A stretch of 64,000 nucleotides of DNA, taken from the IMG/VR virus record IMGVR_UViG_3300031368_000001, positions 1-64,000 of that record, one strand, 5' to 3'. How positions within the stretch are numbered: the stretch's first letter is position 1; every line of letters starts with the position of its first letter. Below the pieces are notes generated by a model, which saw only the letters and a program-made list of their open reading frames with translations, did no database searches and had not been told where the DNA came from. The translations under genes were made by a program, and so were the position numbers. Below are positions 1-35,019 of this stretch, one piece after another. The stretch is from a virus.

Positions 1-820
1 GATTCAGATGAGCTACTTGATTCTGAAGAACTACTGGAGCTTGATTCAGATGAGCTGCTTGATGATTCAGAACTTGAGCTTGATGATTCAGACGAGCTGC
101 TCGATGAAGATTCTGAAGAACTAGAGGATTCAGAACTGCTACTTGATGAAGATTCTGAAGATGAGCTGGAAGATTCTGAAGAGCTTGAACTAGATGATTC
201 AGATGAGCTGGAAGATGATTCAGATGAGCTACTTGATTCTGAAGAACTACTGGAGCTTGATTCAGATGAGCTGCTTGATGATTCAGAACTTGAGCTTGAT
301 GATTCAGACGAGCTGCTCGATGAAGATTCTGATGAACTAGAGGATTCAGAACTGCTACTTGATGAAGATTCTGATGATGAGCTGGAAGATTCTGAAGAGC
401 TTGAACTAGATGATTCAGATGAGCTGGAAGATGATTCAGATGAGCTACTTGATTCTGAAGAACTACTGGAGCTTGATTCAGATGAGCTACTTGATGATTC
501 AGAACTTGAGCTTGATGATTCAGACGAGCTGCTCGATGAAGATTCTGATGAACTAGAGGATTCAGAACTGCTACTTGATGAAGATTCTGATGATGAGCTG
601 GAAGATTCTGAAGAGCTTGAACTAGATGATTCAGATGAGCTGGAAGATGATTCAGATGAGCTACTTGATTCTGAAGAACTACTGGAGCTTGATTCAGATG
701 AGCTACTTGATGATTCAGAACTTGAGCTTGATGATTCAGACGAGCTGCTCGATGAAGATTCTGATGAACTAGAGGATTCAGAACTGCTACTTGATGAAGA
801 TTCTGATGATGAGCTGGAAG
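1..820. repeat. 216-bp higher-order tandem repeat (~3.8 copies) in Ser-rich CDS
   Basis: gattcagatgagctacttgattctgaagaactactggag starts at 1, 217, 433 and 649. Confidence 0.9.
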
Positions 821-33200: not shown

Positions 33201-33631
33201 GAAAATATATCTACATCGGCATATTTCTTGCGTGTGTTCTTCCTATAGCCTGGCCAACAAACTGGCCTATAATCTGGCCTGACGGATGGTGGAAATTCAC
33301 CATGCAGCTCCCATCAGGAAAACCCGCAGAAGAACTTATAAAAAGAAAGAGGCCTCTTCCAAAACTTAAACTTGGAGAGGCTATGCTTCACATAGACCCT
33401 TTCGATAGAATGACATTCGGAAAAATTATTCGGATCCAGAGATTCCCGTCGGGGGATAACACATCGAGGGGTAAAACATCGGGGGATAAACCCGAAATTT
33501 TTATCCTTGTTTATTTGAAGAGTGAAAAAAGTATTAAGAAGATCCCAGCCAATCATGGAACCTGGATCAGCATTGAAGAAATTCTAAGAAAGGAATATCT
33601 GGAAAATGAGACTAAGTTAGGTTGGGAGTAA
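33197..33631 (+). CDS. Membrane-anchored hypothetical protein
   Basis: N-terminal hydrophobic segment. Confidence 0.55.
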   Translation: MRKYIYIGIFLACVLPIAWPTNWPIIWPDGWWKFTMQLPSGKPAEELIKRKRPLPKLKLGEAMLHIDPFDRMTFGKIIRIQRFPSGDNTSRGKTSGDKPEIFILVYLKSEKSIKKIPANHGTWISIEEILRKEYLENETKLGWE

Positions 33632-33968
33632 ATATTATGAGAAAGATTAAGTACGATATTTTAGTAATTACCTTAGGATCTATTTCAATCAGTTTCGGTC
33701 TTGGTTTGTGTGTCGGTGTAGGAATCTGGCTTATCGCATTAACCATATATTCCAAATAAATAAGAAAACCCAGAAAGAAAGGGATCGTCTCTGTGCTGTC
33801 GTATCCAGAGACGATTCCAACTATGAATTAAACAATACAAAGAGAAAAGGCCATCTCCCTGTGAAGGATACAGGGAGTGATGGCCAGGAAGAGATAGTGT
33901 ATTCAGGGACCCAGCACTAACCGCCTGGTTACCTTGAAAATCCATAATGGAAAGGAGGTGAACCACCT

Positions 33969-34298
33969 ATGCGGAAGTTCTTAATCGTGCTGAGCATTAT
34001 CTGCATGCTCTTCATCGTAAGCGTCGCCCAAGCAGCTGACGTGGTTATCACGGCAAAGATCCAGAGCGTAACTACTGCCATTGATAAAAATGGCAATCCG
34101 TACGTCCGGTTCATAGTCGATGAAACTCGTAAGATGCAAGGAGTCGAGTACGAGGTAGGAGTAGCAGTAATGGCCTTCAGAGGTACAGTCAAGGAAGCAA
34201 AGACTCTTAAAGACGGAGATGTTCTTAAAGCTATCTGTAGCGAGAAAGAGTATCAAGGTCGGAAGTCTTACACTATCCTGAAGCTGTTGCCTAAGTAA
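33969..34298 (+). CDS. Secreted OB-fold-like protein
   Basis: AGGAGGTG RBS; signal peptide ending VAQA; DKNGNPYVRF strand pattern. Confidence 0.7.
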   Translation: MRKFLIVLSIICMLFIVSVAQAADVVITAKIQSVTTAIDKNGNPYVRFIVDETRKMQGVEYEVGVAVMAFRGTVKEAKTLKDGDVLKAICSEKEYQGRKSYTILKLLPK

Positions 34299-34310
34299 GG
34301 CAAACCTGGA

Positions 34311-34371
34311 AGGGGAGATTCGGTCTCAGATCTCTTGATTGAGACAAAGACTGAATCTTCCCTTTTTTTTT
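34311..34371 (+). terminator. Terminator hairpin, possibly bidirectional
   Basis: ggggagattc...gaatcttccc followed by a T-run. Confidence 0.75.
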
Positions 34372-34392
34372 ATGTATTGATAGTTTTTATTA

Positions 34393-34429
34393 GTTTCAAT
34401 CCTTGTTTTAGTAGACCCCCGCCCTTCAC
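34393..34429 (-). CRISPR. Solitary CRISPR repeat unit (not an array); Racr-like ncRNA candidate
   Basis: 37 nt GTGAAGGGCGGGGGTCTACTAAAACAAGGATTGAAAC with canonical ATTGAAAC 3' end. Confidence 0.75.
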
Positions 34430-34441
34430 AGGTTTTTTATT

Positions 34442-34470
34442 ATTATAACATAGACAAAAGGAGAAAGCAA
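34442..34470 (-). promoter_or_regulatory. Sigma70 promoter driving the solitary repeat
   Basis: TTGCTT-N17-TATAAT with extended -10 TG. Confidence 0.75.
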
Positions 34471-34472
34471 GC

Positions 34473-34832
34473 ATGCAACACACACTTGGAAAATTACGAA
34501 TCAATGATATGCCTTTACCAGCCAGAGGGCATATTGAAATCAATGGTGATAAAGTAAGATTAATTATGAAAGACCTTCGCCGAGGTAAACATTACACCAT
34601 GAGTGACTCAATGGCTTCCGATGCCCAGCGCATAGTCGATTGCGTCAACGGCTGTATAGGAATCGAAAATCCGGGAGCGATAATGGAGGCTGTGGAAGCA
34701 TTAAAGTTAGCTGATGGAATAGCCAGCACACTCATGGATGAACTCGTCGGTATCAAGGCTACAAACTGGAGCATCGTTAATGGTGGCCTTGTAAGAATAG
34801 GCAATGCTCTTAAAAATATCCAGAAGGAATAA
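34473..34832 (+). CDS. Hypothetical phage protein
   Basis: AGGAG RBS; DAQRIVDCVNGC.GI motif. Confidence 0.7.
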   Translation: MQHTLGKLRINDMPLPARGHIEINGDKVRLIMKDLRRGKHYTMSDSMASDAQRIVDCVNGCIGIENPGAIMEAVEALKLADGIASTLMDELVGIKATNWSIVNGGLVRIGNALKNIQKE

Positions 34833-34836
34833 AATC

Positions 34837-35019
34837 ATGATCGACATATACACTAAAGTAATTCTAACTATCATAGGCATAACACTTATCGGTCTTCTAT
34901 TACAGCCGATAATAATGCCTAAACCAAGTATAGCAGATGGAATCGTAGCAGTCGATCTCGTCCGCATCAATGGCTACTATGTTCAGAATCCGCTGGAAGT
35001 GAAGGTGGTGAAAAGATAA
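34837..35019 (+). CDS. Small membrane protein
   Basis: DIYTKVILTII TM segment. Confidence 0.6.
   Translation: MIDIYTKVILTIIGITLIGLLLQPIIMPKPSIADGIVAVDLVRINGYYVQNPLEVKVVKR

Follow-up and report, generated by a model that had tools for sequence, protein, structure and literature searches.

Does the single repeat-like unit in an intergenic gap of an uncultured, siphovirus-like phage descend from a CRISPR array, and could an RNA read from it act against the CRISPR-Cas system of the host? The unit lies in IMG/VR virus record IMGVR_UViG_3300031368_000001, a 108,285-bp sequence that is 77% complete and occurs in several salt-marsh metagenomes; the first 64 kb of this record (64,000 nt) are referred to here as the window. 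A 174-bp gap (34299-34472) between two plus-strand open reading frames (ORFs; 33969-34298 and 34473-34832) holds a 37-nt string, GTGAAGGGCGGGGGTCTACTAAAACAAGGATTGAAAC, on the minus strand at 34393-34429. An earlier analysis made from the letters alone (hereafter the sequence-only reading) had taken this string for a solitary CRISPR repeat with its own promoter, followed by an A-rich pseudo-spacer and a strong hairpin, and had proposed that it is an RNA anti-CRISPR (Racr). As far as the layout is concerned, this description was accurate. The string is present at these coordinates and occurs only once in the 108,285-bp record, even if up to 10 mismatches are allowed (shuffled sequences gave zero matches), and the minus strand carries, in this order, a promoter-like TTGCTT-N17-TGtTATAAT (34470-34442), 12 nt, the unit, 30 A-rich nt (34392-34363) and a long hairpin.

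The appeal to phage solitary repeat units (SRUs) acting as Racrs also has a published basis. SRUs, which go back to Faure et al. (2019), number 2,103 in viruses according to the report of Camara-Wilpert et al. (2023, PMC10651486), where some of them are proven anti-CRISPRs and RacrIF1 and RacrIC1 are described as RNA anti-CRISPRs. The SRUFinder procedure of that report looks for repeats that are intergenic, have no neighboring repeat, full or partial, within 100 bp and are not associated with cas genes. The unit is intergenic and has no such neighbor, and no Cas6 (PF01881, PF10040) was found in the record. Judged by sequence comparison, the unit is a true fragment of a CRISPR repeat, present once and in a favorable position behind a predicted promoter. 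The function that we favor, at a probability of roughly 45% and hence tentatively, is that of a Racr-like decoy RNA for the host Cas6 and Cas7 proteins.

The evidence for the repeat ancestry comes from an exact scan of genomes with the last 19 nt of the unit, which showed that ...ATCCACTAAAACAAGGATTGAAAC ends 37-nt repeats in at least 120 genome contigs. Among the matches listed, many contigs contain arrays of this family, with up to 80 copies and a 72-75-nt period; the contigs belong mostly to Methanosarcinales, but also to Desulfobacteraceae, Bacteroidota, Chlorobiota, Clostridia/Halanaerobiales, Fusobacteriaceae and still other groups. The ...ATCCACTAAAACAAGGATTGAAAC end is common to the arrays, and the 5' half, with the consensus (G/A)T(T/C)..A.A..., varies. 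The cas genes seen in the array-bearing genomes (not in the phage) are of class 1: genes of type I-D (Cas4, Cas5/Csc1, Cas7/Csc2) adjoin the array in a Desulfobacteraceae contig (L068), genes of type I-B (Cas7/Csh2, Cas5b, Cas3, Cas1, Cas4) adjoin the array in a Delongbacteria contig (L097), and L086 has Cas4, Cas1 and Cas3. Cas6 enzymes of types I-B and I-D cleave the repeat 8 nt from its 3' end, and type I-B processing of CRISPR RNA (crRNA) has been reported for Methanosarcina mazei (reviewed in PMC5965381). Thus the claim that the unit ends like a Cas6-processed class 1 repeat with an 8-nt handle holds, given the at least 120 contigs, the I-B and I-D neighborhoods and the published cleavage position.

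The recognizable repeat part of the unit extends over 34393..34416 on the minus strand. Its 3' end, ATTGAAAC at 34400-34393, corresponds to the 8-nt crRNA handle, with the cut site kept in front of it, so that the expected Cas6 cut falls between 34401 and 34400; both handle and cut site are unaltered relative to the family. The last 20 nt (ACTAAAACAAGGATTGAAAC) match exactly, and 23 of 24 nt agree with the family consensus. The stem in the family comprises 4-5 bp, (A)TCC/GGA(T), and closes a 10-nt loop; in the unit the 5' arm GUCU, the loop ACUAAAACAA and the 3' arm GGAU(U) precede the handle AUUGAAAC (34400-34393), and with GGUCU facing GGAUU all pairs can form. The two changes in the 5' arm, A->G and C->U, turn an A-U and a C-G pair into G.U pairs, and this is true only of the minus-strand RNA. 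The unit therefore has in common with the Methanosarcina-type 37-nt family (which resembles the Rfam family CRISPR-DR7, RF01320, is associated with types I-B, I-D and III, and is processed by Cas6) the last 20 nt, the stem register, the 10-nt loop and the handle, and differs from it in being a single copy rather than an array, in its 5' 14 nt, which are unlike those of the fetched members, in the two stem wobbles and in falling below the Rfam gathering score: RF01320 scores 21 bits over model positions 13-37 (gathering 37; E = 0.57 in 2 kb), and no Rfam family reaches its gathering score anywhere in the window. The description as a single 37-nt repeat stands for the 3' 23-24 nt, which are repeat-derived, and has to be given up for the 5' 14 nt, which resemble no fetched repeat above chance; the repeat ancestry of the G-rich 5' part (34417-34429, minus strand) is unproven.

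A second point in favor of the decoy is the position of the unit behind the promoter-like site. The predicted promoter is of the sigma-70 type with an extended -10 (34442..34470, minus strand), composed of TTGCTT at 34470-34465, a 17-nt spacer and TGtTATAAT at 34450-34442; the extended -10 is a perfect match, the predicted transcription start falls near A34435 and the whole site overlaps the ribosome-binding site (RBS) and the ATG of the plus-strand ORF that starts at 34473. It is the only TTGnnn-16..18-TGnTATAAT on either strand of the 108 kb. TGnTATAAT by itself occurs 6 times in ~217,000 positions, which gives a chance of ~0.001 that one of them stands, correctly oriented, in the 50 nt before the unit. 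Candidate Racrs are expected to have a promoter within 250 bp upstream, and the predicted site ends 12 nt upstream. The few remaining TGnTATAAT sites are on the minus strand (51252 and 29958 of the window and 98023 of the record), and at least one of them (51252) precedes an RBS-like stretch and an ATG; these few sites may be real promoters of the phage for the host polymerase.

A third such point is strain variation. Sibling strains match the window up to 34370 and again from 34626, with different sequence in between (the joint 34370->34626 of run X4). In one such sibling (X6), the 30 nt that follow the terminator, i.e. the loose end after 34370, align to 34437-34466 (local p = 0.02); hence about 60 nt (34371 to ~34436), including the whole unit, are extra in the window (34371..34436), and in the sibling the terminator is followed nearly at once by the conserved RBS-proximal block. 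A low-depth relative, ~83% identical, still covers 34392-34475. According to these alignments, the unit is an accessory insertion that has been kept in at least two diverged lineages and is absent from others.

If the unit acts as a decoy, its history and action would be as follows. A piece of a class 1 repeat (the 37-nt ...ATCCACTAAAACAAGGATTGAAAC family of types I-B, I-D and III) would have been inserted into the gap of some strains, preserving the small hairpin with its loop and the 8-nt handle, if not more. Because an extended -10 promoter stands 12 nt upstream of the unit, a short minus-strand RNA, antisense to the early genes and starting near 34435, is probably made. Host Cas6 would bind the weak hairpin and cut between 34401 and 34400, and the downstream piece with AUUGAAAC at its 5' end would nucleate the assembly of Cas5/Cas7 or Csm/Cmr on a non-targeting RNA. 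As has been described for RacrIF1, Cas6 and the backbone subunits would thereby be titrated off the real crRNAs. What we observe is that the sequence matches, that the unit is solitary, that a promoter-like site precedes it and that the insertion is polymorphic; transcription, binding and cutting by Cas6, and inhibition are what we infer.

A series of observations speaks against such a decoy. To begin with the repeat itself, the stem consists of 2 Watson-Crick and 2-3 wobble pairs, and RNAfold predicts no stem in the free RNA. In a scoring matrix built from 43 repeats of real arrays, the 5' 14 nt of the unit (GTGAAGGGCGGGGG) obtain -10.3 bits, compared with at least -0.2 for members of the family, and their gapped match is chance-like (p = 0.065 with shuffles, 0.45 with random genome 14-mers). 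The nearest full-length relatives agree at 30/37 positions (L133, a lone metagenome copy) and 29/37 positions (arrays), the repeats compared being only those with the family 3' 19-mer among the matches listed. SRUFinder speaks of a full match when a known repeat is covered to at least 90% with an identity of at least 90% (PMC10651486), and with a coverage of 23-24 of 37 nt (62-65%) the unit is a partial match under this rule and not a full solitary repeat. Some Cas6 proteins that work on repeats of weak structure bind the first 10 of their nucleotides (PMC5965381), and since the 5' 14 nt of the unit are unlike repeats, Cas6 binding may fail. As to the promoter, the -35 is weak, with 3/6 consensus matches, which is why a standard promoter scan omits the site. 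The -10 block belongs to the part common to the siblings, reading TGCTATACT and being slightly weaker in the sibling without the unit, and therefore a slightly weaker antisense -10 preceded the arrival of the unit. The unit is missing from all of the more distant relatives examined (L138, L139, L141, L142). In IMG/VR the 19-mer is found in 8 contigs, compared with 4 for a composition-matched reversed control, only about a two-fold enrichment. Finally, the repeat, which the sequence-only reading had put forward as a route to the host, failed in this role, as the family is spread over Methanosarcinales, Desulfobacterota, Bacteroidota, Clostridia and still more groups; a cognate CRISPR-Cas system in the host is thus putative.

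The hairpin belongs among these adverse points as well. It had been counted as part of the minus-strand unit, and our findings assign it to the gene on the other strand. On the plus strand, the segment 34308..34371 forms an intrinsic terminator with a 19-bp stem (34308-34326/34348-34366) and a T9 run (34363-34371) that overlaps the last stem bases; the predicted fold, which includes G-U wobbles and is followed by U9, has -33.9 kcal/mol (z = -5.85). On the minus strand the fold reaches -26.4 kcal/mol, contains A.C mismatches and lacks a U tract. Moreover, a hairpin with a T-run is found 3' of the homologous gene in 4/4 relatives without the unit (L138, L139, L141 and L142, i.e. two IMG/VR contigs and two contigs of one Desulfobacterota genome), in which the next gene starts almost immediately after the terminator. 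Because the hairpin folds better on the plus strand and is kept in relatives that have no unit, it is the terminator of the upstream gene, and for the minus-strand RNA it could at best be a poor bidirectional terminator. Of the proposed crRNA mimic that sequesters Cas proteins, what survives is a real repeat family; the repeat is only partial, the hairpin is not the terminator of the predicted RNA, and the sequestering function is putative.

A rival reading is that the unit is an inert scar, i.e. a fragment of a host array or of another solitary unit that was acquired by illegitimate recombination and is now decaying, with only incidental antisense transcription in the neighborhood. Only ~24 of the 37 nt are still recognizable, the unit occurs in some strains and is absent from siblings and from all distant relatives, the -10 block is older than the unit, and lone partial copies with unrelated 5' halves exist in cellular genomes (L019, L094, L095). 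However, decay would have had to spare precisely the functional part, i.e. the handle and cut site together with the loop and stem (20 nt are exact), and to restrict itself in the stem to two changes that are both wobble-compatible on the RNA strand; it would also have to be accepted that the fragment landed 12 nt after the best promoter-like site of the genome, a coincidence of ~0.001, and that the ~83%-identical relative nevertheless retains the region. We consider a scar unlikely, although it is a competitor to be taken seriously.

A different function, that of a one-repeat guide akin to Cracr, CreA or a mini-array, would have the handle and its tail load Cascade or a type III complex and direct it to a target such as the promoter of a host cas gene, a toxin gene or another, competing phage. 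The layout of handle, 30 nt and hairpin behind a promoter agrees with it, viral crRNA-like regulators have been reported for types I-B, I-C, I-E, I-F and V-A (bioRxiv 10.1101/2024.10.29.618823), and a second repeat would not be strictly needed, given that the 3' ends of type III and I-B crRNAs are trimmed (PMC5965381). The difficulty lies in the supposed spacer. The A-rich 30-nt stretch (34363..34392, minus strand) that had been called a pseudo-spacer consists of the 21 nt TAATAAAAACTATCAATACAT and A9, the latter (9/30 bases) being the antisense of the terminator T-run; it is mostly native intergenic sequence and T-run antisense, and for 34392-34348 neither the rest of the phage nor the fetched cas and array loci contain a match. 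Like Cracr and CreA/CreR (Liu et al., bioRxiv 10.1101/2024.10.29.618823), the unit is a predicted small, promoter-driven phage RNA with a repeat handle and a short spacer-like stretch, but those RNAs have degenerate repeats on both sides and at least 9 spacer matches, proximal to the protospacer-adjacent motif, to a cas or toxin promoter, whereas the unit has one repeat piece and no target in the fetched loci or the phage. A candidate second degenerate repeat within the hairpin (CTCAATCAAGAGATCTGAGAC), which would have made the arrangement mini-array- or CreA-like, was rejected, as its similarity is of the level p ~0.10-0.13 and the hairpin is homologous to the terminators of unit-less relatives. 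The mini-CRISPR arrays of viruses engaged in inter-virus conflict (Medvedeva et al. 2019, PMC6858448, as cited in PMC10651486) are comparable in being repeat-derived, carried by a virus without cas genes and variable among siblings; they contain at least two repeats flanking a spacer, whereas the unit lacks a second repeat as well as a spacer that matches a sibling, and what follows its handle is the phage's own intergenic DNA. A guide against sibling phages does not fit either, because the handle-proximal 9 nt of the spacer are absent from the sibling strains. All in all, we regard a guide function as improbable.

Could the match be fortuitous, so that a 20-24-nt A-rich string merely resembles the end of a repeat and the promoter, if active, drives an ordinary antisense RNA against the terminator and 3' end of the upstream gene? 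The 5' half that is not repeat-like, the Rfam score of only 21 bits (E = 0.57 in 2 kb), the 4 occurrences of the reversed control 19-mer in IMG/VR and the promoter-like block that is present without the unit in a sibling are all in keeping with this possibility, as is the existence of lone genomic matches without even a stem (L022, L034, L066, L078, L120), which are themselves probably due to chance. From base composition, however, only ~1e-6 to 1e-5 matches to the 20-mer are expected per 108-kb genome, and the 4 reversed-control matches over ~2.9 million IMG/VR contigs are consistent with this expectation; if thousands of known repeat families are allowed for, the chance rises to ~0.1-1% per genome. 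Besides, the match stops exactly at the 3' boundary of the repeat and adds TC.A of the stem, and it is intergenic, correctly oriented behind the promoter and located on a strain-specific insertion that is G+C-richer than its flanks, all of which makes pure chance unlikely and leaves it, in our estimate, a slim prospect even with the case included in which the promoter has another purpose. Least probable is a plus-strand role, in which the insert would serve the downstream gene through a -35 element (TTCACA, 34425-34430) or as an element of the 5' untranslated region and the CRISPR likeness would be irrelevant: the only plus-strand promoter-like site of the gap does pair the in-unit TTCACA with TAACAT, and the sibling swap also takes in the 5' third of the downstream gene, but the site has a 15-nt spacer and a 4/6 match in the -10, and the plus-strand RNA structure of the gap is not beyond chance (z = +0.5).

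Compared with the known SRUs and Racrs, the decoy RNA that we favor is similar in being a lone repeat look-alike in an intergenic region of a phage, and departs from them in several respects. It matches only ~65% of the repeat length, which makes it a partial match for SRUFinder. It is related to the I-B/I-D/III family, whereas the Racrs demonstrated in the accessible part of PMC10651486 belong to types I-F, I-C, I-E and V-A. It has no recognizable acr or aca gene next to it, in a neighborhood whose genes belong to no recognizable family. Lastly, it is antisense to the surrounding operon and would have its terminator in common with a converging gene. A more specific version, which we offer as a long shot, is a minimal "half-repeat" anti-CRISPR RNA, in which the Cas6 hairpin, cut site and handle of an I-B/I-D/III repeat are fused to the antisense of the phage terminator. 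The cut RNA would then be the complement of the early transcript that the phage itself makes by read-through, anti-handle included; it could soak up Cas6 and Cas7, and in a host with a type III system the filled complexes would read the phage RNA as "self".

The same repeat family also occurs as lone copies or two-repeat mini-arrays in other IMG/VR contigs (L002, L004-L009) and in metagenome contigs; a scan of metagenomes for TCTACTAAAACAAGGATTGAAAC returned 8 contigs, none of them related to the window phage. Carriage of the family by mobile elements is therefore recurrent, in agreement with the published viral SRUs. In three metagenome loci (L130:894-1040, L134:1005-1150 and the minus strand of L135 at ~2572-2594) a full-length lone copy, ATGGCAGAGCAACATCTACTAAAACAAGGATTGAAAC, precedes an identical stretch of ~36 nt and an identical ORF start, and a similar lone copy is present in an archaeal genome contig (L023); such a layout suggests that repeat and gene form a conserved module of a mobile element. 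The IMG/VR contig L006 (minus strand, unit from ~6398 in reverse-complement numbering) has a lone copy whose 5' half, GTTGCCCTG, departs from the family and has its complement, CAGGGCAAC, located ~45 nt downstream of the handle, so that a long-range stem could close the unit and its tail. The window has a comparable arrangement: a 14-nt inverted repeat (34302-34315/34422-34435; AAACCTGGAAGGGG / CCCTTCACAGGTTT, 79% complementary) encloses the terminator and the unit; if it formed in the minus-strand RNA, the predicted 5' end would be paired with the sequence immediately beyond the hairpin. On neither strand is this pairing kept consistently by the strain variants at 34303 and 34307.

With respect to the host, relatives of the flanking gene are present in 1/401 Desulfobacterota genomes and in 0/301 genomes of the Methanolobus class, and the repeat family is present in 11/401 Desulfobacterota genomes. 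The single Desulfobacterota genome contributes two short contigs (G275:C187 and G275:C529, our L141 and L142) with close homologs of the 109-aa protein encoded upstream of the unit and with the same downstream gene order. They are probably binned phage contigs, and they point weakly to Desulfobacterota as hosts of this phage group; the genome in question has no repeat of the ...ATCCACTAAAACAAGGATTGAAAC family. BLAST comparison of all fetched arrays with the phage, in search of spacer matches, gave only the repeat itself and chance-level matches. In run X4, at a loose end after window position 34410, the contig continues with ...AGGGAATCCATTAAAACAAGGATTGAAAC on the repeat strand. This continuation is the canonical TCCATT variant of the family that is also present in arrays of several Desulfobacterota genomes, which means that hosts or elements with true repeats of the family co-occur with the phage in the same salt-marsh sample. 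Searches with the capsid and primase proteins gave only distant matches (at most 35% identity) and thus no host clue, a search of cultured-phage DNA gave no match around the site, and IMG/VR, searched via the downstream protein and the capsid protein, yielded no close relatives.

The gene upstream of the unit (33969..34298, plus strand) encodes a 109-aa protein with a signal-peptide-like N-terminus that belongs to a conserved phage protein family with >50 clusters and invariant residues R47, G58, Y61, G83 and S100-K105; neither Pfam nor PHROGs has a family that matches it. Every relative examined has an intrinsic terminator 3' of the homologous gene. In a near-identical strain (X5), 20/22 substitutions fall within 34087-34333, i.e. 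in the 3' end of the 109-aa gene and the 5' arm of the terminator, and hence at most 2 lie elsewhere in 33603-35004, unit included; the segment 34087-34333 has the look of a short patch exchanged by recombination. In this strain, the terminator stays paired on the plus strand with the changes at 34321 and 34322. The downstream gene (34473..34832, plus strand) encodes a 119-aa protein of no recognized family, and its 5' third is swapped in sibling strains. None of the ten neighboring ORFs has a Pfam match, and PHROGs named only a single-stranded DNA-binding protein (SSB), which is of bacterial type (phrog_44, E = 3e-43). The record also contains a tailed-phage head and tail module and hairpin-plus-T-run terminators. 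In view of the SSB, the head and tail module, the terminators and, as weak evidence, the distribution of the flanking-gene family, it appears reasonable to read the signals of the gap as bacterial.

If the decoy reading is true, the unit would add a Racr-type decoy for the Cas6-dependent I-B, I-D and III systems that use the widespread repeats with the ATTGAAAC handle, and it would mean that ~24 nt of a 37-nt repeat suffice for this purpose. Siblings with and without the ~60-nt insert, present in the same salt-marsh samples, constitute a natural comparison. On the strength of its sequence, the unit is plausibly one more candidate of a class of elements already counted in the thousands.

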